Below are positions 1,095 to 58,258 of a stretch of 64,000 bases of DNA, one piece after another; the stretch's first letter is position 1, and the number at the start of each line of letters is the position of its first letter. The notes beneath the pieces were generated by a model, which saw only the letters and a list, made by a program, of their open reading frames with translations, had not been told where the DNA came from and did no database searches. Position numbers and translations under genes: made by a program. This DNA comes from Vermamoeba vermiformis (Eukaryota), in assembly GCA_045837725.1 (NCBI GenBank), contig JBEWZL010000244.1, positions 62,001 to 126,000 on the forward strand, in the 5' to 3' direction.

Positions 1095-2790
1095 TTATGC
1101 CGTTATGAGCATCATCATGGTTACAATAACTGTAACGCTCCACAAACAGTCCTCGTTTGCCGAAGAAACTTGTTGCTGTGGGGATTGGTATGGTTCTTGT
1201 TGTTGCGTTGTGGGTTGATATTGAGGTTCGTCACCAACAGGTGGAGTCAATACTTCTCCAAACGGTGCGATACCCATGCCACTGCAAGGTCCTGTAGGAT
1301 CGGGTACTAGTTGTCCTGTTTCGCTCGTCTGAAGGTTCGGGTCTGCAAAGACGTTGGTGTTTGTGAAGTTCGTGAAGTAGGCTTGAGTGTCAGTAATGTT
1401 GTGGAAGTCGATAGCTGTCGAAGGATACATAAAAACCCGTCCTATAATTTGATTTTGTGTATTATTGTTGACTTGAGGCCACCAACAATTCGCGTCGAAG
1501 TTGATCTCTTGAAAGTGAGGCCACGGTTGAACATTCGCCCAGAACGACATCTGTGTTGCATGCGCAAAGACGTTGTCGGTTATGAAAACGTTCGTTAAGT
1601 TCGTAAATGCTCTATAGAACAATAAGTCGTAGCCTTGAAGTGCGCGTTGAAAATGGCTCCATCCCGTGCCCATTCGAATGCACGAATTCTTCACGAAGTA
1701 GATCTCATACGATAACGAATTTGTCATATTTCCTGCATTCCACAGCTCAAAGCACTGCTCGCATTCAAAAATGTAGTTGTTCTCGAAGCGGATGTGGTGT
1801 TGAATGTTCGCGGAAAGTCCTTGTGCCGTCGTTGCAGTGTCATACACTTGACTGATAGTATTGTTCGCAATAAGAATGTGCGCGTTGCTTTCCCACATCT
1901 CGATTCCGTTGCCATATCTCGTCGTACCGCTGAGAATACTTCCACCGATATGTCTAATGTCGCAATCTGTCACGGTCACATTGTTTGCGTTGTTCATTTG
2001 AATGCCGTGACTGCCACCGTAAATCAACTCCAAATTACGTATAATGACGTTGTTTGCGTGAACGAAGATAATGTTTCCTCTGTACGCAGCTTCAATCGAG
2101 TAATGTAACGTCGCTGGATTTGAAGGCGATTTCATCACGACTTTTTTCGTTGTGGTGTTCCAAGCGAACTGATTGTCTGACACAATTAATGACTCGTTAA
2201 TGACTTTATATGCTTTGTCTGTTGCATTGGCGAAGTGGTTGAAGACGATGTTGCCTACGTCTGCCGGAAATGTCACGGTCGATTGCCATAACGAAGGTCC
2301 TATGAGATCATACGTGTCATTAAGGATCCATGACGTTTTGACACTTGCCGAAAACTTATATTAAATTTAAATCGCACTTGCATGTATTATTATTATTCGC
2401 AATGTATATGATATGCAGTAGCAATATAAAATGGTATAAAGCAGGTCGGAGGGATGAACACTTACCGATCTGTTCCCAATCGCTTTCGTTGCTCAATGAC
2501 AAGGACATCATAAGACGTGGCTTCGGTCCTTCTCCATAGGCATCATATATAACTGGATTGTCTATTTGTCCGCTTTTGGCACTCACACTTCCACGCCAAG
2601 ATCCACCTCGTGCAAATAGAATTCGATCTCCGCCAATAAGACTGGCATTTTGAACTCTTGCTAGTGTCTGCCAAGCATATTCAGGACTGGTGCCATTATT
2701 CGTGTCGAATCCAAGCTCGCTGTCAACGAAATAATCTATCGCGACTACGCTCGTTACCAACGCCAAAATTAGATAACTAAAATACTTCAT
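1095..2790 (-). CDS. Secreted, probably GPI-anchored right-handed parallel beta-helix (pectate-lyase-like fold) protein
   Basis: Signal peptide MKYFSYLILALVTSVVA; YFVDSELGFDTNNGTSPEYAWQTL...GDRILFARGGSWRG; PbH1-like repeats; intron 2300-2465; Pro/Gln linker and hydrophobic C-terminus. Confidence 0.8.
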
Positions 2791-12080: not shown

Positions 12081-12253
12081 GTTCGTTGTTTGCGTGCTCG
12101 CTCTTCAAGCAAAAAAAAAAAAGAAATACGCCCGCTGTGGGGCTCGAACCCACGACCACACGGTTAAGAGCCGTGCGCTCTACCGACTGAGCTAAGCGGG
12201 CTTGGCGTTGCGGAGAGGCAAAAATATTTTTGAGCCACACAACTTCGGCAAAC
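12081..12253. repeat. 173-bp direct repeat, copy 2
   Basis: Identical to 912-1084. Confidence 0.95.
12129..12201 (-). tRNA. tRNA-Lys(CTT), second identical copy
   Basis: Same sequence and oligo-T terminator as 960-1032. Confidence 0.97.
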
Positions 12254-14262: not shown

Positions 14263-17184
14263 ATGGCCAACTCTCAAACAGAAAGGTATGCATGCAACAG
14301 ATCAAAAGATTCACCGATTTTTTAGATGTACTCAATAGGTTATTCGCACTTACGTACTTCAAGTTATAAATTAAAATAATTAATATCTCTGCTTTACAGA
14401 GAAACACTAGTCAACTTTGTCGAACGTCTGGTTCGACATCCATTAAATGCTTCCATACACGAATTAACCGGCAAAATTCCTGGCGGAAATGTGATGGCGT
14501 TTGTCAACAAGTACCCTTTATTCTTCGAACTGCAAGCTGATGTCAAAACACCCCAAGTCCGACTCAAACAACACACGAGCAAGACTGGCCATAAATGGCG
14601 AATGTGCGCAGACTATTATTTCACGAATAAATGCGCGAGAGATCAAGCGTGTCAGTTCTGGCACGGGCCTACTGATCAACGAGACTGCCCTGTCAGGCTC
14701 CAACTCGACACATCCGGCGCAACAGTCACTGCCATTACAACGCCCGCCAACAGCCATTCGCAGAGTAAACCTGTCTTGCCGCCAACCAACAATGTTCAGA
14801 CAAACAAACAGACCCCTGCGCCACCGCCAGCCAAAAAAGCAGCACCTCAGCCACCAAAAGCCAAAACGACCAAACCTGCAGCGCCAAAAGCACCAAAAAA
14901 AGCGGCCAAAAAGGCAGCCCAGAAAAATCCTCAAAGCGGCCAACCACAGCCTGCTGCTTTGAAATCAGACGCTAAAGTGGCCAATACGACTCCGAAGCCA
15001 GTCCCGATTTCGATCTCTGTTCAAAACACCACTCCGCTGCCCGCTACTTTGCCTTCAAACACGCAGCCAAAACGCAGATTTGAAGGCAAGAACTGTTACC
15101 TGGTGCCCAAAGAGAAGACCTGCACCGAGGCCCTCAACGAGTTGATATCCTCAGAAGTGATCGCTGTTGACTGTGAAGGCGTCAATCTAGGTCCCAATGG
15201 CAAGCTGTGTCTGATTCAAATAGCTACGGGCTCAAACGTCTACGTGTTTGACATGTGCGTTGACACGGCTCAACGAGAATCCATTGTCGGTTCACTGAAA
15301 CCGGTTTTCCAGAACGACACCATTAAGAAGATCTTGCATGATGCTAGAAATGATACCGAGGCGTTGTATTCAGTTGGCATTATCAACGAGTACTTCGAGG
15401 ACACGCAGATCTTGTACGGACTTTTGACGAGCTTGCGAGGAAAGCCTGAAAAGAAGATTGGTCTCAAAGAATTAATGCAAAAATATGGATATGACCACGA
15501 GCTTAAGACTACTATGAAGGCTAATTACAAGTCAGATCCGGCTTTGTGGGCTCACCGACCTCTTACTGAAGATATGATCGAGTACGCTGCTTGCGATGTG
15601 GCAAATCTCGCATTGGTTTACAAGAAGTTGAAAGAAGATTTCGAAAAGGAAATAATATTGGTTAGCAGAAACTATGCCATGCCTAAAGAATTGAAATTGA
15701 TAGAGAAAACTTACGCGGATGCGATCAAAATTCAATTGGACGTTAAACTACGACTGTTTTTCACTAAAGAGAAGAAACCTGATCGTAGAGACCTTAGCGA
15801 TGTTTATATGGAAGGTACGACTGGTTTACTTCGCGAGAAATTTTATTAATAATATTTCTCAGAAGTTGCGCCGGTTACAAACAACACGAATGAACGAAGC
15901 GACAATGAATCCGAGGAAAAAAGATTGCTTGCATTATTTCCCGGAAGAAATACGATGGGCTATTGAATCAGAGTCTCGCAGCACTACGGAGACATTGATC
16001 GAAATTGTCATTGATCTGGGTCGGGTTCCGAGAATTAGATTTACATCCAGCGAAGTTCCATTGAATGTCTGTGGTATTATTAAGGACATGGAACCCTTTG
16101 TCGCCAATATTCTGTCTAATTCACAACGCACTGACTTCTCTCGAGAGAATCGCATTGGTATCGAAGTAAGGTCTCACACAGATAAAGTTCTCCGACATTA
16201 ACGAAATTTCTTTAGGGATCTTTGCACCGGATCTCGGCGATTAAGAACGCAGATAATCGCGTGATTGGTCTCACGTACCGCATTGGCAGACATTTGCCTC
16301 GCTCAGCGGAAATCATCACCGATTTGATTGCACGTGTTGCACCCTCGCTTGAAAGCACCGTAGATCACGCACCTCAAAACACATCCATTCTACTATTAGG
16401 ACCTCCCGGTATGACCAATATACTACGAGTATAATTGCAGATCTGCTTAACTGAAGCGTTGTAGGTGTCGGCAAAACTACCCTCTTGAGAGAAATTTCAC
16501 GACTATTGGCTGATGAATACGAACAACGTGTGATGATTGTTGACACGTCGAATGAGATTGGCGGTGATGGCGATATTGCTCACAACTGTATTGGACGTGC
16601 TAGACGTATGCCTGTAAGTGTCGAATATTTAATCGGCAATCGTGTAATGATGTCCTCTTTAGGTGGTTGACAAGGCCTCTCAGCACAACACAATGGTCGA
16701 AGCAGTGCAGAATCACAATCCCACTGTCATTATCATCGATGAGATTGGTACACCGAAAGAAGTCATTGCAGCCAAAACAATCTCGCAACGTGGTGTCTCG
16801 TTGATCGGCACTGCTCACGGCACTTCATTTGACTCATTAATGAAGAATCCAGAGCTCGTGCCTCTACTTGGAGGCATCAGAGAAGTGTTCTTGAGTGATC
16901 GAGAAGCAACGATCAATGATGATGGAACCAAATCCAAAGTCAAACATGAACGAGGTGGCGCTCCTACATTCAACATTATCATCGAAATTATCACGAAGAA
17001 CAAGTTCCGCATTTACGACGATGTAGCGCTGATCGTTGATTCAAAACTCAATCGCAAGCCTTATGTGACAGAGCTGCGATGGTTCGAAGAAGACCGAATG
17101 TACTCCATGCTGGAGCAACATAACTCCTTGGACGCGAAAAAAGGAAAAGTTGAATTTGCTTATGTGAATAACAACAATAATTAA
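14263..17184 (+). CDS. CCCH zinc finger + EXD1/Egalitarian-like DEDDy 3'-5' exonuclease + Ycf45/SpoIIIAA-like ATPase, paralog A (+1 frame offset near 15940)
   Basis: C-x8-C-x5-C-x3-H finger; ExoI IAVDCEG, ExoII LHDARND, Exo[26 protein letters not shown]...GLTYRIGR, Walker [21 protein letters not shown], Walker B IIIDEIG, GTAHG; five GT-AG introns. Confidence 0.9.
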
Positions 17185-17279
17185 TAGGCCTCGACAATAA
17201 ACGGATTTAAAGTGTTGCTCGGTTTTTTTTGGTTTACACTTAGATTTATATACATAAGTTACACAATAGATAAGACTAA

Positions 17280-19001
17280 TTACAAAGTACCGTAATTCTC
17301 ACCTTCAGATGAATTAGCGTTCAATAATCGTTCTTGAGCCTCTTCGCGCTTCACTCGGATCTGCCACAAGACCATCGCGGCCACAACAGCTGCAAAGACT
17401 ACAGCCACGCCAATAGCTACTACGACTTCTATAATTAACAATGTACTTGGTGGCTTATTTGCATCGTCAGGTTCGCAAATGACGTCTCTGTTGCAAAAAT
17501 GATCCAATTTGAATTCAATTATCACATCCGCTGTTTGAGTGCCGAGCCATAGTTCAGGCACACTTTCATTCTTCATATTATTGATGTAATAAGTCGCGCA
17601 TGTAAAATCAAATTGACTCCATTGTTGGCTTTTCGGAACAATCAATGACGTGCCTTCGTAGTAAAATTTGTTGTGCTCGATCTGGATCGCAAGTTAATGA
17701 AAAAATTAACTTAATTATAATATAATAATAATTTACCTTGGCTAGTGCAGCATTCTTTGTGAATAAATACATAAACTTGCTGTCAAAAGAATAACCAGTT
17801 GTGTTTCGGATCTCAAAATTGATGAAATCTAACGCCTTGTTCATCGGCCACCTAACCATTAATTAGTATTATATTATATTAATATAGTATACGTACTTAT
17901 AAAAGTGAGATAATTCTCGATTATCATTGCTCTCAAACAACAAAAATCCGGACGACTCGATGTCGGTCATTATAGCCACGGGTTTAAAGTTTGTATTCAA
18001 TGAAATTACATTCTTAAGACTATAATAATATATATTAGGGACCTATAATAATATAATATGAATATGAATGACTTACTATGCTTTCTTATTCGGCTCGTAT
18101 CGCATAAAGTACCACTCTTGCAAGTTGGTGTCATTATTGAATTTCGGCTGACAAATAAAGAAGACATATGCGCCATTAATAGTAGTTGTTATTAATGGAG
18201 GACTGTCTAATGAGACACTAGGACAAAAATCTGCTGCTAGTGGATGCGTTGACGACGGATTCATCGTTGTTAGATCCACAACATCGAGCAAGAGTTGCGA
18301 TGAAGTATTATTGTTTGACCCTTTGCTAGTGTATAATAAATATGCTTCGTGCTTTTCCGCTGAAATGCCTCCACCAAAGTAGATCCGATCTGTTTGCAAA
18401 TAACTTGCCGTTGTTCTGTCATTGAGATCGAATGCAATCAATCCATTAGGCGATCCTTTATATGAATCGGTCATAATATAATATTTGGTGCCTAGAATCT
18501 TCGCTTGAAAGAACTACGTTGTAAGAAAATAGGAAAATTAATGAAAATTCGTAAATTAATGCTAATGCGTTGTGTTTATACCTTATAAGCTAATGGAGAT
18601 CCATATTTTGTCATATCAAAATATTGGCTGTATTCTTGAGTGAAATTGGGTGTGTGCAGTGAAGTTATCGCAAAAGCGGATTCAGAGATCTGTACAGTTG
18701 ATTTAGAAAAATCATGCAAAGGTCTTAAAATATTATCAATAATGATAACAACCGATATACATACTTGGTAAACCATAACTAATTTTTCAACGCCAGATTG
18801 ACCTTGCTGCCAAAAATTCAATGATATGTAGCTGATGTTATTTTGATTTGCACCTAATATATTGTAGGCACCGCTGAAATAGTCCTGGGTAAGCAAAAAT
18901 GGCTCGTTTGATATTGAATCCAGCTCAACCGCCGAAACAAAAGATCCGATCAGCCATAAACTCAGCAATAACCGCTGAATTTTGTAGCCGTAAAGCACCA
19001 T
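17280..19001 (-). CDS. Type I membrane glycoprotein with endolysosomal sorting motifs, family unknown
   Basis: N-terminal signal peptide, TM helix VVVAIGVAVVFAAVVAAMVLW, cytosolic tail with acidic dileucine-like EAQERLL and terminal YGTL. Confidence 0.72.
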
Positions 19002-19172
19002 TGTGCTATTTTATCTAACTTAGTACTAAATTTAATTGGGAACGAGCACTGTTCACAAAAAACCACCTGGGCAGGGCGAGATCTATTGCTTTTTCAAGAC
19101 TAATTTATTGCAAGCTAAACTAACTATTACGTGCTCTTATTGCAAAAACCATTATATTCTCTACACTCCGCC

Positions 19173-21752
19173 TTATGCCCAAGAGTTTTGTTCTTCCCAC
19201 TTGCAGTACATCTGATCTCCAAGGAACCAACGGTGTTCGATGGTGTAAGGCTTTCGATTGAGCTTAGCATCTACGACACGAGCAACATCATTGTATATAA
19301 TAAAATGATTCTTCTCGACGATCTCGACTATGACGTTGAATGTAGGAGCGCCACCTCGTTCATGTTTGACTTTGGATTTGGTTCCATCATCATTGATCGT
19401 TGCTTCTCGATCACTCAAGAACACTTCTCTGATGCCTCCAAGTAGAGGCACGAGCTCTGGATTCTTCATTAAGGAATTGAAGTCTGAGCCGTGAGCAGTG
19501 CCAATCAGCGAAACACCACGTTGTGAGATTGTTTTAGCCGCGGCTGCTTCTTTCGGTGTACCAATCTCGTCGATGATAATGACAGTGGGATTGTGATTCT
19601 GCACTGCTTCGACCATTGTGTTGTGTTGAAACGACTTGTCAATAACCTACAAGGCACGACATTAGTCTCGTGCAAAAGCAGTCGTTTGATCACTTCCGTT
19701 TGACACTTACAGGCATACGTCTAGCACGACCAATACACTTATGAGCGATGTCACCATCACCGCCAATCTCATTCGACGTATCGATGATCATGACACGTTG
19801 CTTGTACTCATCAGCGAGAAGTCGTGAAAACTCTCTAAGTAGAGTTGTCTTTCCCTTGCCTATGTTGTACTTAGTGTTTGTACGATAGGTCATTAACAAG
19901 ACATATTGCGTACCAGGTTTTCCTAAGAGCAAGATGGAGATATTTTCCCGCGCAACACGTGCAATCAGATCAGTGAAAATTTCAGCTGAGTGAGGAAAGT
20001 GTCGACCAATGCGATATGTAAGACCAATGACACGATTTTCTGTGTTCTTAATGGCCGATATACGATGCAAAGATCCCTTAATCAGATGTTAGATGTGCTA
20101 TATACGGCAACACCTGTCCTTACTTCTATGCCAATGCGATTGTCGCGAGAAAAGTCGTTGCGTTGAGATTTCGCCAAGACGTTTCGCACAAATGGCTCCA
20201 CGTCCATTACAACTTCGCCATCCAACTCCTCGTGCGTGCCGTCAATGAACACGAGAAGTGGAGCACGTCCCATGTCGATGACTATCTCGATCAGCGTTCG
20301 ACCAGCGCTGCTTGCAACGACTTCGATTGCGTTCTTGATATCATTCGGAAACAGGCCTAACAGCGTCCTTTCTTCAGCTTCATTGTCAATTCGTACTTTT
20401 TCGTTGCTCCCTTGTGTTGGTGTTGGACACAATTTCTGCAGTAAGAAAATTAGCGTTGTTTAATTAACATGAACTAATCGTACCTTCGGCAACGTCTGTG
20501 GGGAGCTTGCGATCAGGTTTCTTTTCGTGGGTGAAGAACAATCTTAACTCAGATCCGACTGGAAGTCCAACAGCAGCGTATGTATTCTCGACGATCTTTG
20601 GGGCTTCGAGGACCGGATTAGCTTTCACATGCTCGATGTCTTCTTTCAACTTCTTGTAGACGGTGACCAAGTTGGCAACATCAAGGCACGCGTACTGGAT
20701 CATCTCGTGAGTCATAGGTCGTTGAGCCCACACATCCGGTTTGTAGTTATATACTCTCTTCATCTTCTTTTTGAGCTCGTGAACGAAGCCGTACTGCTTC
20801 ATTAAAGACTCTAAGCCGAGTTTTTTCTCGGCTGATCCGCGTAACTTGATCAAGTCTGCGTACAAGATCTGCGTGTCTTCGAAGTTTTCGTTGATAATAC
20901 CAACAGCACTTAACGCCTCATTGTCGTTCTTTGCGCTGTGCAAAATCTTCTTAAGGGCGTTGCTCTTGAAGACAGGCTTCAGGGCACTAATGATAGTGCC
21001 TCGTTCTTTCTCGTCAACGCACAAGTCAATCACGTAGACGTTTGAGTTTGTCGCTATTTGAATCAGACACAGCTTGCCATTGGTGCCAAGACCGACACCT
21101 TCGCAGTCAACAGCGATCACTTCTTGGCTGGTAATCTCGGCGAGGATCTCGACACATTGCTTCTCCTGTGGCACTAGATAACAGTTCTTGCCTTCACACA
21201 CTCGCACCACAGGAACTAGATTGTTTTGGCTCGTAGTTGGCTGACCGCTTAGTGACGGTGTCGTAGCTGAAGTACTTGACGGTGCCGCGCCTTTTTTAAG
21301 AATGGGTCTGTCTCGTTTGTCACCACGACCGTGCCAGAAAAAGCATGCATCACCTCTTTTGCATGTACCGTTGAAGTGACGCGTTGTACACATTTGCCAC
21401 TGGTAGCCTGACTTGCTGGTGATCACCTTGATCCGAACTCGCTTGTCATTCTCGTACATCTCGAAAAACTGTGGATTCTTTCGGACGAAATCCGCCACGT
21501 TGCCTCCAGGCACTTGGTTGGCGAGTTGCTTGATCAAATTTTGCTTTGGATGTTGCGTCAGGAAGGCAGCTAGTCTGTTGACAGCTTTCCTATTTAAAAG
21601 TAATTCGTCAGCTAAATGCAATAATGTTTTAAACTATGTCTATGGCGTTTAAATAATAATGGATCTATCAACGTATGGGATCGTATCCAATTAAAAGAAA
21701 TAAAATGAATTGCGTTGCGATCGGGTTGTACATACTTTTGTCCGCTTGCCAT
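19173..21752 (-). CDS. CCCH + DEDDy exonuclease + Ycf45/SpoIIIAA-like ATPase, paralog B (+1 frame offset near 20400)
   Basis: Same architecture and five intron positions as paralog A; CTTRHFNGTCKRGDACFFWH; IAVDCEG, HSAKND, YACLD; GKPGKGKT; IIIDEIG. Confidence 0.9.
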
Positions 21753-26305: not shown

Positions 26306-28068
26306 CTATGAGCGTTGAGCAAAAGCAAATACATAGTTCTTTGTGTGGGTCACTGCGTTGGCAGCTTCGATTTCCTGGGCAACAGTGGTGTATCCATAAC
26401 CGTTGTGACGTTCCGCATCTTGAATCTTGAACAAGTGACGAGAACCGGTTGATCTTTCCAAAAAGTACATTTCCGAGTATGCCTGAGCATAGTGCATACC
26501 AGTGGCAAATGATTTGAAGTCGCGCATGCCGCATAAGCATTCGCGAATGTCCTTGACAAGATCCAGACAGTAGGGCTCATTAGCAGAGACAGACTGCTGT
26601 ATCCTTTCAATGAGCTTATAGAGTTTCAGTTGAGCCTGTTTAAGACACGGAGTTAATTCATTGAATTCTCCTTTGTTTAAAGATCCGCAACTGACCTCGT
26701 TGTAGTTCTCTTGCTTAGCAAGCTCGATAGCTTCGTTTATCGTGGTTGCAGCAAAGTAACGGTTAATGTGCTGGTCGAGGATAAGAGGAATGTTCTCTTG
26801 AAGAGGGACGACGGTACGGGTAATGGCTAGGGAAGTTTCAATCTGTTCGACTTGGTTGGTAAGGGCATTGACGTATTGTACACCTATTTTCATCAGCTCG
26901 TGACGGGAGAGGGGTTGAGGCATACTCCTAATTATTAAGAGGATGTTAGGAATGTTCAACGAACATTGAAATTACGATGAACTCATTCTTTGAATCCGTC
27001 GGTTAAATAACGTACCTTAAAGAGATGCGGCACAATAAAGACTTGGACTCTCCTTGGAAGAGCGAGCCTTGTTGTACATCGTAGTCTTTAGCCGCCTTGA
27101 GTTCATTGATTGGATAGGGAGTGGCTAGTGCGACGACTCGCGCGCCATCTTGAGCTCGCAAGAAAACTTTAATGCTGTGGGCGTGAGTTGACAAAACTCC
27201 AGCCAGGCACTCTCCAAATGTAGCAGCAATTGCTTCAGGCGTTTGAACGTAGTAATAGGTACCCTAAAATTAAGAATTCTTAGCTTCTGCGGACGTTGAG
27301 ATAACGGAAGGAAAAAAAAATCCGAGATTCGAATCTAATGAATCTAAAGACTCGCTAATTTGCAGTATTTTAACTTGTACATACCTGTGCTCGCATAGCA
27401 ATACTATTAAGGAGTCTAGAATCATGGTCCTCACCATAACCGAAAGTGTTGATCACGCAGCCGTGAGGAAGTCCAGTCTCTTGTAAGACTTCAAAAGTGC
27501 TCTTAGTAGCTCCGCCGCGGTTGGAAAGACCATCAGTGAATAACATGATTGTAGAGAGTCTTGATTGTTCGTGAGAAGGTCTTCGCTGAAGGATATCTAT
27601 GCCACGGAGTAAAGCTTCAGCCATGTTTGTGGAACCAGAAGCTTCCAGAGCAGTGAGAATGTCCAAAATTCGTTGCTTATTTTCGTTGGTCATGGCTGCC
27701 AATTCGACAAGTGTTTGGACATTATGATTGAAGACAATAAGCGTGAATCGGTGGTTCTCTGTCAGCTTGATCAATAGGTATTGAATGGTAGCCTTGACAT
27801 AAGCCAATTTGCATTCTAAGTTCATGCTCGCACTGATGTCGATTATAACTACAAAGTCCACAGAAAGACCAGTGCCAAGTAGAGCAGATTGAGATTTTAG
27901 ACTGATCAAAGCCCAGAAGTTGTGAACTGAGTTGTATGTGAATGTCTGGCGCTCCAAAAACGTATCCATAGACAATACGGGCTGCGCTGGCCTGGGCCAG
28001 GCACCCGAGGAGTGCATAAGGTTCGCGTGAGCATTCGCATCGGTCATCATCAAATCTACTGTTGACAT
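26306..28068 (-). CDS. von Willebrand factor A domain protein
   Basis: MIDAS DISAS, GSTNM, MLFTDG, INTFGYGEDHD, AATFGECLAGVLS; helical C-terminal extension. Confidence 0.88.
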
Positions 28069-28539
28069 GATTTTGTGTTATATTTGTTAGCTGAGTGTAT
28101 ATTTTAGAGTTTAGCTGAAATGGGGTACATAGTTGGGTTGAAAGGGGGGGGAAGTTTGGTTGAAATGTGGTAGGTGTGTTGTGCTTTGAGAAATTCGTAA
28201 AATAAAAACAGCGCAAAAAATTGCTTTTGTTGTTTTTCCTCAGAGTTGGAAATTTCTATTTTTTGACGGAACGTTATTGGTCAGAAAATTTATCAACTTT
28301 AATTCGCTATGTAAATTTCCTTCAATCGCGGTAAAAAACAAGAAACCTCAGCTTAGGAGATGACCTTAATAATTCCTGCCCATTAGGTGACGACAACTGA
28401 CCTATTTTTTGTCATGCCATACAATTTTTTGTCATAAACAGCTTATTCCAGAACATAACAGAATATTCCTACCATCCTTCTGCGCGGGGTTTTAGGATTC
28501 GTGAACTGACGTACAGTCTTTCAAACAACAATTTTTGTC

Positions 28540-30280: not shown

Positions 30281-32021
30281 TTATTGACTTGCAGTTTGTG
30301 AAGCGACAGGCTTTTCAGCAAAGAATTGTTTTGAGTCAGCGCAGTGTTCGTTCTCGCAGCCCGGGCAACGCAATCTGAATTGAGTGCTAGAAGTCTTATT
30401 TGAAGCTAGGTGTTTGTGCACGACATCGGCCATAGCATCGATGAACAACGGATCCGTGTTGAGCGACTCAGATCTGTGCATGGTAATGCCGAGCTTGATT
30501 CGCATAGTTAGTAACTATCGCATATTGTCAGTATAATAATTTTTACCTTATGAGCGACTTCTTTGTATTCAATGTCGATCTCAAAAAGTGTTTCAATGTG
30601 ATCTGAAGTGAAAGCAATAGGCACCAACAGCACGTGTTTGTTGCCCTTTGCAGCAAGTCCAGGAAGAGCTTGTGAGACTTGAGGACCTAACCAGGGCAAG
30701 GGACCGACTTTAGATTGCCAAATAAGGCGATACGGGTTTTGGTGGTTCAGTTCGTGCATTACTGCTTGGACTGTAGCAGCGACTTCTTGAGGGTACGGAT
30801 CTCCTCTATCAACGACGTAGATAGGAATACTATACGTAGAATATCACATTAGTAAGCTCGGAAAATCATATTTTGAAATGGTTACTTACGAATGAGCGCT
30901 GAACAACAAGACGACCTTGTCACGATCCGCAGGGTCAAACTTATTCAACGCAGCTTCAATCTTTTTTGCGACTGCTTTGACGAAGAGAGGATTGGTGCCC
31001 CAACGATCGATAACTGACCAACGGATGTTGGGATCATTTGCAAGTTCCTAAAAGTTCATGTTAGCACATCCACGCTAACTTTCGTGACACGTGCCAAGTG
31101 CTCACTTTGACACATTATAGTACCATTATGAGGGGTCTGTATTTACCTTATTAGCGTTCAATTGTCTGTAGAGTTCGTTCATGCTCGAGCCAGTGGTGGT
31201 GCACGAGTACTGCGGGTACTGTGTGAATGCTACAACACGGCTAGGTCGGTCACGTGACAACTGTTCCAATGTATGTTCGGTCAATGGTGACGCGTATCTG
31301 AACGCAATGTACCACTTGTGAGGAGCTGTTTCAGGCGACATTTGATCTAATTTTTTAACGAGGAGCTCGGCTTGCGCTTCGGTCCATTTTCTAATCGGAG
31401 ATCCTCCGCCGATCAGCTGGTATTGTTTTTGAACTTTCGGAGTGCGGCGACGAGCGATATATTGACTTGCGTATTTTTGATAAGGAAGCTTAATAATCTC
31501 TCTGCAAAGAAGTAAAAATAAGTAACGTGCTAATTATAGCGTTAATTTTCAATTTTAAGGATGGTTTGGGATCGAGACGGATCTCGCGAGCAACTTTGAA
31601 TTGGGAATTTGTAATTTACAGGTAGCAAATATTACTATAATTAGTGAATAATTTTATGGTGCCTAGAACAGGGCGTAGAGAGTGCCGGATCTACGAAAGA
31701 TTTTTTACCTGTCAGAAAAAAGTCGCAGCAAAAATGGAAATACTTCTTCTTGGTGCGCGGGACCGCCTAAATTTAGCAAAACAATACCAGTGCCTCGTTT
31801 CCTAAATAAATAAAAAATATTAATTTCATAAATAAAAAAACGGAGAAAAATTCTACAGTTAATTATAAAGGACTACGTTGTATTGCTTACGCATTAGCTT
31901 CATTGGCATACAATCTAGCTTGAGTAGAAAATCCTCCGAGCGTTGGGAAAATAGATTTAGTAACGGCTTGCTTTTTGTTAGGCAATGCGCTAATTAGCTT
32001 TGAGAATTGAGTTCGCAACAT
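30281..32021 (-). CDS. FECH: Mitochondrial ferrochelatase, [2Fe-2S] type
   Basis: Basic presequence; [53 protein letters not shown]-terminal CPGCENEHC. Confidence 0.95.
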
Positions 32022-55306: not shown

Positions 55307-55930
55307 ATGAGCCAGTAAGTAACCGTTGACTATTTCTGACCTAATCGTCGGGAGATTGCACACTCGCTCAACCGAAACAACGCGGCCCGCTTAGCTCAGT
55401 CGGTAGAGCGCTAGGCTTTTAACCTAGTGGTCGGGGGTTCGAGCCCCCCAGCGGGCGTATTCTTTTTTTTTGCTATTGCTTGGCCCTCTGTACCTCGGGC
55501 AGAACCGCAAAACATTTTTGGAGCTTTGGGATTCCAACGTCAACGAAACGGATCTAACTTTTTGAACAGGATCCGCTGCGCTGAATGTAACCAAGAATTA
55601 ACGCCCGCTTCCGGTCCCATCCTGTCAAGCAAAGGCCAAGATTATCACCCTCAGTGCTTCAAATGCGGCTTTTGTGGTAACCAGATTGATAGTGCCTGTA
55701 AGTCTGATCAGGTTGAATTAGATCCGTCTTACTCATTCTTCCAATGCGCAAGATGGTGAACGTGAAGGAAAACGTGCTTGTGCTAACTGCGGTGGCGCTA
55801 GGAGGCAAGGCTTCGTTGTTGATCCGAGGTAAGCTCACGAGGCATAACGCGATCAGATCTAACTTTCTTGTGGATCAGAACTGGTCAAAAGAAACCGGTA
55901 ACGGTCAAGCCACCCATCGCAAAGAAGTAG
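55307..55930 (+). CDS. Small single-LIM-domain protein (4 exons; intron 1 hosts a tRNA)
   Basis: Spliced MSQIRCAECNQE...YHPQCFKCGFCGNQIDSAYGEREGKRACANC...KK*; full LIM Cys/His pattern. Confidence 0.85.
55385..55457 (+). tRNA. tRNA-Lys(TTT)
   Basis: 73-nt cloverleaf with anticodon arm CTAGG-CT-TTT-AA-CCTAG, followed by a T9 terminator. Confidence 0.97.
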
Positions 55931-56009: not shown

Positions 56010-58258
56010 TTACTCGAACTTGATACCTTGAGCAAGGGGCAATTCAGTGCTGTAGTTAATGGTAACGGTCATGCGGCGCATGTATTGCTTCCAGCTGTCA
56101 GAACCGGATTCGCGACCAGCACCAGTTTCCTTTTCACCACCAAAAGCGCCACCAATTTCAGCACCGTTAGTGGGCAAGTTAACGTTGACAAGACCGCAGT
56201 CAGAGCCACGAGCGCTGTGAGCCCAAACGAAGACGTTGCGCATGTTGTTGCTGAACAAGCTGCTGCTGAGACCTTGAGGCACGGAGTTGTTGAGTTCAAC
56301 GGCTTCCTCGAAGGTCTTGAACTTGATAATGTGCAAGATGGGCACGAAGAGCTCCTCCTTGATGATGGGAGCGTCGGCAGGGGTGGCAACCAAAGTAGGC
56401 TCGACGAAGTTACCCTCGAGGGTGACGCCAGCCTTGTTCTTGACTTGACCCTTGAGGACGTTACCGCCCATAAGGATCTTGCCACCTTGTTCTTGGATAG
56501 CCTTCAAGCCTTGCTCGTACTCCTTGACGGCGTTGGCAGTGTGGAGAGGACCCATAGTGGTACCTTGCTCCATAGGATCACCAATGCGGATTTGCTTGTA
56601 GGCAGCCTTCAAGGACTCGATGAAGGAGTCGTAGATGTTCTCGTGCAACAACAAACGTCTGGCAGTGGTGCAGCGTTGACCGCAAGTACCAACAGCAGCG
56701 AAGAGAATGCTGCGGAGAGCCATTTGGATGTTGGCGTCGTCCATGACAACGACGGCGTTGTTACCACCGAGTTCGAGAATGGTGCGACCGAAGCGGCTGT
56801 TAACGGCCTCGCTGATTCTGCGACCGATGGAGGTAGAGCCAGTGAAGGAGATCAAGTTCAAGCTCTTGTCTTGAGTCAACAATTCACCAATGCGACGACC
56901 GTCACCAGAGATAGTGCAGTGAACACCGTGGGGAACGTTGAAGCGATCGAAGACGCGTTGAACGACCTTGGTGATGGCCAAAGAGCACAAGCTGGTGGTA
57001 GTGGCACCCTTCCAGATCTCGCAGTTACCGCAGACAAGAGAGATGGTCATGTTCCAGCCGAAGACAGCCATGGGGAAGTTGAAGGCGGTGATGATGCCGA
57101 CCATACCGAGAGGGTTCCACACTTCCATAATCAAGTGATCCGCACCTAGTTATTGGAATCATATTGATTAGTAACCGGTCGAGCAATAGAAAACGGATCT
57201 ATCAATGAATTTGACACGCGTCAATTGCAATAAAATCTACTTACGTTCAGAGGGCAAAACTGGGCCACCAATAGTACGAGAAAGACCGACAGCCAAGTCG
57301 CAAATATCAATGTATTCTTGGACCTCACCAAGAGCTGTTCATAAAAATTTGTTAATAATCACATCCACGCGAAGTATCACAAAATCAAGAGGTGATTGAA
57401 TTACCTTCAGGCAAAATCTTGCCCATTTCGAGCGAAATTAAGCGACCCAAAGCCTCCTTCTTGGTTCTCAATTCGTCACCCAAAGCACGGATGATCTCAC
57501 CGCGCTTAGGAGCAGGGAGCTAGAATCGAATTTTAGTAATTATGATAAGCCAAGATCAAGATACAGCTGTTGCCGATTTAATTAAAGTCCGCTGATGCGA
57601 TCCAGAGCCGAGATCGAGCACAAAAAAAGTAAACTGAAAATTCTGCAGCTGGATCTGAAAGCATGAAAGTATTAAATCCTAATAAATGCTACTTACGGCT
57701 TGCCATTCCTTGGAAGCTTCCTTCATCTTCTTGGTGCAAGCAGCGTAATCTTCCGCTGAAGCCTAGGTAAAAATTTTCGATGAGACAACTGGTGCATTGA
57801 AAGGGGATCGCAGTGTAGAATCGAGTAAAAAGGGTCGTACTAATTTCTCAATTATCGAATATTTAACTTACTCCGCGGATAGTGGCGATGGGTTTTCCGG
57901 TGGTCGGAGATACGCACGTAATAGTCGGTCCGTTGCCAAACCAAGTGCCGTTGTAAACACCGAGGTTTTCTTCGTGGATATCTAAAGAAATGACGAGTTA
58001 GTTAAAAAGTTCTAGAAGAATCGCTAAACTGAGATGCTGCATCCATTCATTTAGAAAAACCGAAAAAAATTTAATTTTCCTACTTATAATTTTCTCCTTT
58101 CTCACCGATGGTGGAAACAAGGAGAATAAGATTTAAACCATTCATTGCGTAATTTAAAACTGGATGTCCGTTGCAAAAACAGGCGCAGAACGATTAAACT
58201 TACCGAGCTCCTTCAAGAAGTCGGCGTACTCGTTGTAAGTCAAAGCAGAGGCGGCCAT
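56010..58258 (-). CDS. ALDH7: Aldehyde dehydrogenase family 7 (antiquitin)
   Basis: [70 protein letters not shown]. Confidence 0.96.

Follow-up and report, generated by a model that had tools for sequence, protein, structure and literature searches.

A convergent gene pair of Vermamoeba vermiformis belongs to a widespread eukaryotic family that joins a DEDDy exonuclease to a SpoIIIAA-class ATPase

A 64,000-nt stretch of Vermamoeba vermiformis DNA (assembly GCA_045837725.1, contig JBEWZL010000244.1, positions 62,001 to 126,000 of the forward strand; hereafter the window) carries two convergent, intron-bearing paralogues, gene A on the forward strand (14263-17184) and gene B on the reverse strand (21752-19173), which belong to a large, widespread and uncharacterised eukaryotic protein family. 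The order of domains in this family is a winged helix similar to those of LOTUS and Egalitarian (Egl) proteins, a CCCH finger, a disordered linker, a DEDDy exonuclease and a two-domain ATPase of the PilT/VirB11/SpoIIIAA class. In relatives the nuclease and the ATPase form one polypeptide, whereas in the window as assembled the reading frame is broken between them in both genes. On balance we favour the reading that A and B are convergent paralogues of this family, that the frame breaks do not reflect their normal state, and that their products would act on RNA as a ring-shaped ATPase with tethered exonucleases.

Gene structure, family and domain order

Six-exon models were built for both genes from the sequence and its stop-to-stop frames. 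Gene A starts at the ATG at 14263 (+) and comprises exons 14263-14285, 14400-15814, 15863-16165, 16216-16408, 16465-16613 and 16663-17184; gene B starts at the ATG at 21752 (-) and comprises exons 21752-21736, 21589-20484, 20435-20124, 20076-19914, 19859-19711 and 19646-19173. These two ATGs are the ends of the interval 14263-21752 in which an earlier note, made from the sequence, had placed a pair of paralogues. All introns are GT..AG and, except for the first of each gene, 47-64 nt long. Exon 1 of gene A (14263..14285, +) consists of the ATG, seven codons and two bases, and gives an N-terminus parallel to that of gene B, whose first exon occupies 21736..21752 (-). The first intron measures 114 nt in gene A (14286-14399, +, GT..AG) and 146 nt in gene B (21590-21735, -), where it was seen as a joint from 21588 to 21735 in one contig of RNA run X1. 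A tblastn search with a relative, P0001, found only these two copies in the window.

All five introns of gene B (146, 48, 47, 54 and 64 nt) appeared as joints in contigs of run X1 and two of them also in contigs of run X7, with the joints of the ATPase exons (47, 54 and 64 nt) coming from X1 and X7. Both runs thus contain spliced RNA. A 48-nt intron separates the nuclease exon from the ATPase exons in both genes. In gene B it lies at 20436..20483 (-), and its joint (20435 to 20484) was present in both of the two X1 contigs that span it. Its homologue in gene A (15815..15862, +) is a phase 1 intron with canonical ends (GTACG..TCAG), and relatives read in frame across the corresponding junction. 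Because the joints of gene B appear in RNA contigs, its nuclease and ATPase exons share one transcript, contrary to the possibility raised in the earlier note that the two never occur on one mRNA. Each gene is a single transcription unit with nuclease and ATPase on one mRNA.

The family was surveyed with phmmer, using as query P0001, a protein of 871 aa encoded on a 3.1-kb contig with exonuclease and ATPase in one frame. Among 1.84 billion representatives, 5708 hits were obtained at E 0.001 or better, and the order of domains was counted in 151 proteins, namely P0001 and the best 150 of the 5708 matches. In 48 of the 151 the exonuclease lay N-terminal to the ATPase, and 46 of the 47 aligned relatives carried both Pfam families. 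Named members with this fusion came from Synchytrium microbalum (a chytrid), Amoeba proteus, Planoprotostelium fungivorum and Bicosta minor (a choanoflagellate). The top match, a 1753-aa protein of Chlamydomonas schloesseri, had the ATPase, and no exonuclease was found N-terminal to it. Identity to many ATPase-only representatives was 45-54%. The nearest ESM Atlas cluster (60 members, eukaryotic, Oomycota commonest) contained Spore_III_AA in 97% and the exonuclease family in 70% of members, and the names of the matches were only 'hypothetical', 'ATPase-like' or automatic. An unrooted FastTree phylogeny of the ATPase core, computed from 140 of 149 stretches after nine shorter than 200 aa had been dropped, set a 76-row clade without exonuclease apart, with 46 fused rows outside it; the fused label changed 9 times on this tree versus 38.8 times when shuffled. 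The literature search, which did not extend to subscription-only papers and supplements, returned no description of the architecture, in line with what the earlier note had supposed, but the combination of exonuclease and ATPase is already in the databases, within a large unnamed eukaryotic family, and is not unique to the window. PADLOC reported no defence system and returned generic P-loop matches, the best of them to mad8 (4e-7 to 5e-8 over ~80 residues).

The five parts that had been noticed in both genes, from the N-terminal domain to the ATPase, were recovered in the same order. The exonuclease lies at 15109..15639 (+) in gene A (Pfam PF01612, residues 237-413 of the exon translation) and at 20635..21174 (-) in gene B (PF01612). 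Matches to PF01612 (DNA_pol_A_exo1, cutoff 23.6 bits) had E-values of 2.5e-28 in gene A (99.5 bits) and 3.1e-27 in gene B (95.9 bits). The catalytic residues D, E, D, Y and D are present in both genes within ..VDCEG.., ..ND.EAL.. and ..YA..DV.., and all five are intact in 39 of 47 fused relatives. Egalitarian headed the sequence matches among solved chains in the PDB (E 1.6e-18), ahead of EXD1 (1.2e-6), and this bears out the earlier assignment to an EXD1/Egalitarian type; other close relatives were nanoRNase C, Mut-7 and Rrp6. Partial matches to DNA polymerase exonuclease domains were found in NCBIfam, and the RNase D equivalog TIGR01388 (cutoff 298.95 bits) was not reached by P0001 (57.9 bits) or by a second relative, P0304 (64.7 bits).

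The ATPase of gene A, with a PilT-like N-domain and a P-loop core, is encoded at 15863..17184 (+) according to the gene model and Pfam Spore_III_AA, and contains the Walker A motif GPPGVGKTT and the Walker B motif IIIDE. The ATPase exons of gene B (19173..20435, -) were placed by gene model, RNA joints and Spore_III_AA, and likewise encode both Walker motifs, so that the catalytic positions of the nuclease and the ATPase are complete in both genes, as had been claimed. With the last exons alone, Spore_III_AA (PF19568, cutoff 27 bits) scored 28.7 bits in gene A and 28.4 bits in gene B; P0001 scored 56.7 bits. The same family matched 47/47 relatives, and Pfam T2SSE matched 13/47. All 47 fused relatives have the Walker lysine, and each of the two Walker B residues, D and E, is kept in 46. 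Judged by these kept catalytic residues, the exonuclease and the ATPase of the family both look active. The SpoIIIAA equivalog TIGR02858 was not reached (84.3 and 75 bits versus a cutoff of 281.3). The Ycf45/SpoIIIAA type proposed for the ATPase was confirmed by the Pfam match, except that the PTPase-like and R3H domains which Ycf45-type relatives have at the C-terminus are missing: Pfam found neither in A or B, and the earlier note had seen no R3H. Among ten ATPase-only Ycf45-type relatives the PTPase-like domain occurred in eight and R3H in two.

An AlphaFold model of P0001 with a pLDDT (predicted local distance difference test) of 84.1 was searched against the PDB with Foldseek. The N-terminal half matched Egl-BicD-RNA complexes best (E 2.7e-13), followed by EXD1 (3.5e-9) and Rrp6. 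The ATPase matched PilT, PilU, DotB, VirB11, FlaI and 5f4h with E-values from 1e-8 to 4e-11; the matches to PilT, DotB and VirB11 were ~1e-9, and the match to 5f4h, an archaeal PilT-like Holliday-junction ATPase/helicase, was 4.4e-11. Template modelling (TM) scores on the target were 0.42-0.58 for these ATPase matches, the highest for 3jvv.

At the N-terminus, gene A encodes a winged helix-turn-helix domain resembling LOTUS and Egl domains (14401..14571, +, from an AlphaFold2 (AF2) model), and gene B a winged helix at 21424..21588 (-), located by alignment with gene A and relatives. The AF2 model covered window positions 14401-14715, the first 105 residues of exon 2 of gene A, and had a pLDDT of 85.5 with elements in the order H-H-H-E-E; what had been described as a helical N-domain is thus a domain indeed, of winged helix-turn-helix form in the model. 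In VIA alignments it reached Z 6-7 to many winged helices, among them Egl ED1 (Z 6.5, root mean square deviation (rmsd) 1.8 and 26% identity, the highest identity), ZAP residues 5-68 (6uej, Z 6.8) and the LOTUS domain of TDRD7 (Z 6.3). The analogy to ZAP drawn in the earlier note is structurally fair, though tied with other winged helices. The finger that follows, C-x8-C-x5-C-x3-H, was located by alignment of relatives at 14605..14664 (+) in gene A and 21331..21390 (-) in gene B, and its ligands C, C, C and H were invariant in all eight aligned sequences. Pfam zf-CCCH_12 remained below its cutoff of 27 bits in gene A (17.5 bits) and in P0001 (24.7 bits), with no hit listed for gene B. The low-complexity, P/A/K/T-rich linker of gene A (14690..15080, +) is ~100 residues longer than that of gene B, and in it the RNA contigs show two 3-nt indels relative to the window, at 14706 and 14978, both of which keep the frame. 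P0001 has two tandem modules of winged helix and CCCH finger ahead of the exonuclease, and three of the 47 aligned relatives have OST-HTH/LOTUS (Pfam) instead, so that the family has a modular sensor end.

The frame break between nuclease and ATPase

The 48-nt intron is a multiple of three, and after it the ATPase exons sit in the +1 frame in both genes. Continued past the intron, the nuclease frame reaches a stop after 33 codons in gene A (513 aa) and after 16 in gene B (390 aa). The break of gene A maps to 15934..15944 (+); since the nuclease frame still encodes the conserved start of the ATPase N-domain, it corresponds to one base too many within TTATTTCCCGG. The break of gene B maps to 20393..20406 (-), where the X1 contigs differ from the window, and lies ~18 codons further upstream than that of gene A.

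In relatives the same junction is open. In-frame counterparts of the gene A break were found in P0154 and P0304 (..RRLLSLFPDEIQWAIE), in the genomic locus L001 and in raw RNA reads of a related species (X11 and X13, 90-95% alike). The relatives P0304, P0306 and P0309 encode 800, 800 and 781 aa in frame on contigs of 2.4-2.5 kb, which are full-length transcripts, and are 98% identical to the ATPase core of gene A up to the C-terminal tail. L001 has a 50-nt intron at the homologous donor that yields one open frame. In X11 and X13, eight reads carried the joint in frame from nuclease to ATPase and 15 further reads continued ..EKRLLDLFPEEI in the nuclease frame. The single fused polypeptide that the earlier note described is therefore found as one mRNA here and as one frame in relatives, but not as a continuous frame in this assembly.

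For gene B the RNA itself departs from the window. Both X1 contigs over the junction differ at the break, one by a 13-nt deletion and the other by a 2-nt insertion, and either variant reopens the frame (0 stops on translation, compared with the stop at 390 aa in the window version). The depths of the two contigs, 8.4 and 4.93, together account for the 13.3 measured at the gene B joint. We read the contigs as two in-frame haplotypes that are 15 nt (five codons) apart, with the window matching neither. The linker between nuclease and ATPase of gene B is indel-polymorphic, with three states at 20393-20406, two of them expressed.

Of the six indels by which the RNA contigs depart from the window, the other four each measure 3 nt; being multiples of three, they show that the assembly is not generally indel-ridden. 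With the relatives in frame, the breaks most likely arose either through consensus errors where the linker is heterozygous for indels or as lesions that only the assembled haplotype carries, and would not be the normal state of the genes. Several points tell against this explanation. The window as assembled encodes the fusion in neither copy, and two independent breaks within the same ~25-codon linker are odd for random error. No read from the window's own strain was seen across the break of gene A, and X1 need not be of that strain: its contigs range from 0 differences to the window (neighbouring gene) to ~5% (gene A).

The breaks could instead be real and uncorrected, in which case both genes would make only sensor and exonuclease (513 and 390 aa) and the ATPase exons would be a newly pseudogenised, untranslated 3' region, or the transcripts would be subject to nonsense-mediated decay. 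The window itself reads so, and both the 3-nt periodicity of the remaining indels, which speaks against a generally error-prone assembly, and the three states of the gene B linker fit with it. We nevertheless regard it as unlikely. Both ATPase frames are intact over ~340 codons with a ratio of nonsynonymous to synonymous substitution rates (dN/dS) of 0.075, all relatives checked are in frame, the summed depths of the X1 contigs would leave no room for a third, window-like form, and independent recent null mutations at the same linker of both paralogues are improbable.

Programmed +1 ribosomal frameshifting, as in genes of the antizyme, Ty1 or Euplotes type, by which most ribosomes would stop and a fraction shift, giving a fixed ratio of nuclease to fusion, is kept as a minor rival because both +1 breaks fall in the same short linker, although we consider it very improbable. 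The same +1 shift would be needed in both paralogues, in the same linker and downstream of the same intron; both genes contain a codon that allows perfect re-pairing of the P-site tRNA at +1 (UUU_C or CCC_G within UUA UUU CCC GGA in A, AAA_A within CGA AAA AGU in B); and selection keeps the ATPase frames. On the other hand, such re-pairing sites are probably common by chance, the break sites of A and B are non-homologous, and no shift occurs in any relative examined, so the site is not conserved. Moreover, the next 0-frame codons (CCC or GGA in A, AGU in B) are not stops, nor evidently slow codons.

Distal 3' splice sites, with introns that end at 15899 in A (85 nt) and at 20411 in B (73 nt), would restore an open frame through the whole ATPase (855 aa in A, 731 aa in B), but these gene models were set aside as scarcely credible, because both of the two RNA contigs over the B junction use the 48-nt intron with no other joint listed, the distal sites are without the pyrimidine tract found at the other acceptors of both genes, and the acceptor in A would lose the conserved linker motif ..EE[KR]RLL.LFP.. 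that is still encoded in the nuclease frame. Unless the linker breaks are checked against reads, both genes may be mis-annotated as truncated nuclease genes.

Evolution of the pair and proposed mechanism

Between A and B, dN/dS was 0.25 in the winged helix and finger (dS ~2), 0.21 in the exonuclease (dS ~1.35) and 0.075 in the 5' part of the ATPase core (dS ~1.4). The last of these values, at such a dS, indicates that both ATPases have been under strong purifying selection and have long been translated. The dS value fell from ~1.4 to 0.31 in the 3' part of the ATPase, and the last exons of both genes share a 138-nt tract of exact identity in inverted orientation on opposite strands (16837-16974 and 19335-19472), located inside an inverted repeat, I1, of 487 nt and 82% identity whose arms are 2 kb apart. 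The drop in dS together with the identical tract points to gene conversion between the convergent paralogues. The divergence of the N-terminal halves reported by the earlier note was found again, while the near-invariance that it ascribed to the ATPase is in part a product of this conversion.

The pattern of divergence was also seen at the protein level against relatives. For gene A and the P0304 type, identity rose from 40% (winged helix) and 42% (finger) to 79% (exonuclease) and 98% (ATPase core). Gene B and the 91%-identical P0009 differed at 7 of 38 residues in the finger region, whereas the exonuclease had 5 differences in 215 residues (Fisher p 4.6e-4). Judged from these alignments the putative sensor modules evolve fast, and the differences around the CCCH finger hint at diversifying selection on what may be an RNA-contact surface.

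A mechanism that would fit these domains is as follows. The ATPase may assemble into a ring, like its fold relatives; a complex prediction with two copies of P0001 residues 505-871 scored 0.00, which is evidence neither way. The fast-evolving winged-helix and CCCH modules would bind RNA, ATP-driven movements would deliver or remodel the RNA held by the sensor, and the tethered exonuclease, present six times per ring, would trim or degrade it from the 3' end. The roles that the earlier note put forward, in RNA decay, transposon silencing or antiviral defence, are likewise conjectural. The leaning towards RNA comes from the company that the ATPase keeps, namely a CCCH finger, LOTUS-like domains and an exonuclease of the Egl/EXD1/Mut-7 type, and from R3H in the sister clade. 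CCCH fingers and OST-HTH/LOTUS domains are typically RNA modules, and OST-HTH/LOTUS domains are treated as RNA-type modules in the available text of PMC13186709.

The foremost functional rival is that the same architecture acts on DNA, in repair, recombination or the degradation of foreign DNA, with a PilT-like DNA motor, comparable to the archaeal Holliday-junction ATPase, joined to an exonuclease of the WRN/RNase D fold. The presence of 5f4h among the best fold matches of the ATPase is consistent with this, as are the inclusion of DNA exonucleases among PF01612 DEDDy domains, the partial DNA polymerase exonuclease matches in NCBIfam and the frequent binding of DNA by winged helices. Against it stand the nearest exonuclease relatives, which are RNA-linked, the typical association of CCCH and OST-HTH/LOTUS modules with RNA, and R3H in the sister ATPase clade, and we consider action on DNA to be rather unlikely.

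Action on RNA by a ring ATPase and a tethered exonuclease, which we prefer, has weaknesses of its own. The substrate (RNA or DNA), the ring and the coupling are drawn purely from fold and domain company, and the full DEDDy set is missing in 8 of 47 relatives. The assignment of the winged helix to LOTUS/Egl is unspecific, as MarR and Z-alpha score equally within its Z range of 6.3-7.1; Foldseek with the N-module alone returned nothing at E 0.001 or better (best 0.25). The tree that separates fused from exonuclease-less proteins is, moreover, a FastTree only and unrooted.

A much wider interpretation, which we offer as speculative and doubtful as a whole, is that A and B exemplify an ATP-powered RNA-surveillance nuclease that is ancient among eukaryotes. 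Rapidly diversifying sensors would pick out foreign or aberrant RNA, for example of the giant viruses or mobile elements that confront amoebae, and a ring motor of the PilT/SpoIIIAA class would feed this RNA to the attached DEDDy exonuclease or remodel it. Egalitarian of animals, and perhaps EXD1, would descend from the sensor-nuclease half, having lost motor and catalysis and turned into RNA adaptors. A bolder addition would be that in this lineage the +1 frameshift in the linker sets the ratio of sensor-nuclease to full machine. The preferred reading, action on RNA by a ring ATPase and its exonuclease, would if true provide a function for the eukaryotic, non-plastid branch of SpoIIIAA/Ycf45, for which no role was found in the searched literature, and would be a case of a PilT-class motor that cooperates with an exonuclease acting on RNA.

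Neighbouring features and known systems

Between A and B lies an unrelated gene (17283-19010, -) with no Pfam match. X1 contigs, which showed 0-3 differences to the window here, skip 57, 68 and 75 nt in it and so confirm at least three introns. Inspected by eye, the translation of this gene suggests a signal-like N-terminal and a membrane-like C-terminal hydrophobic stretch. Further along, the window contains a ferrochelatase gene (30284-31800, -), whose exons match Pfam positions 20-145 and 189-290 and show no obvious break on inspection, which is not a real test of assembly quality outside the A/B region. An ALDH7 exon (56013-57149, -) matches a EukProt protein of Vermamoeba vermiformis at 98% identity, the next named matches being from other Amoebozoa at 60-66%. 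A VWA-domain protein is encoded at 27373-28077 (-) and a right-handed beta-helix protein at 1098-2360 (-). Two tRNA-Lys(CTT) genes lie at 960-1032 and 12129-12201 (-) and one tRNA-Lys(TTT) gene at 55385-55457 (+); the stretches in which the two CTT copies sit have the peptide ..AEVVWLKN.. in common in their translations, which makes it probable that these copies are part of a repeated element.

Several known systems resemble parts of the A/B proteins. Among the CCCH RNA sensors of the ZAP/PARP12 type, ZAP likewise starts with a winged helix followed by CCCH fingers, one in A and B and four in ZAP; the likeness is one of a common fold, which unrelated winged helices match equally well. MARF1 pairs LOTUS domains with an NYN nuclease. 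The nuclease class is other than that of A and B, and neither ZAP nor MARF1 has an ATPase.

On the side of the motor, SpoIIIAA powers a sporulation channel. Together with Ycf45 (PF19568, TIGR02858) it falls into the same Pfam family as the A/B ATPase, but Ycf45-type relatives carry C-terminal PTPase-like or R3H domains and form a separate clade, whereas the A/B ATPase is without both. The part of PMC3087521 that concerns Ycf45 tabulates it as of unknown function. PilT, PilU, DotB, VirB11 and FlaI share the two-domain fold with the P0001 ATPase over ~270-380 columns, and 5f4h shares it over ~530-560 columns. Sequence identity in these fold matches is 12-19%, and no membrane or secretion partners are evident here.

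For the exonuclease, the closest comparisons are EXD1 and Egalitarian. EXD1, a partner of TDRD12 in the piRNA pathway (5fiq), has the same fold (TM 0.66 on the target, rmsd 3.5), but is a small stand-alone protein without sensor modules or ATPase, and is a catalytically inactive RNA-binding adaptor. Egalitarian, the Drosophila RNA-localisation adaptor (PDB 9rvy-9rwb and 9uju), is the nearest solved exonuclease by both sequence and fold. According to the available text of PMC13186709, a paper of 2026, it has three LOTUS-like winged helices followed by an exonuclease-homology domain, which as far as described there is the order of A and B minus the finger and the ATPase. Egl further has a four-helix XAD and parts that bind BicD and LC8; the AF2 model of P0001 runs from exonuclease through a short helix and a beta-hairpin to the ATPase N-domain with no four-helix unit, BicD and LC8 motifs not having been searched. 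The same text describes the putative catalytic residues of Egl as dispensable and ~15 Å from the RNA. In the A/B family, in contrast, the DEDDy residues are conserved and an ATPase is added after the exonuclease. The family links 'dead' exonuclease adaptors of the Egl/EXD1 type from animal germlines to catalytically intact protist proteins that still have LOTUS-like modules, which makes the origin of these adaptors testable.

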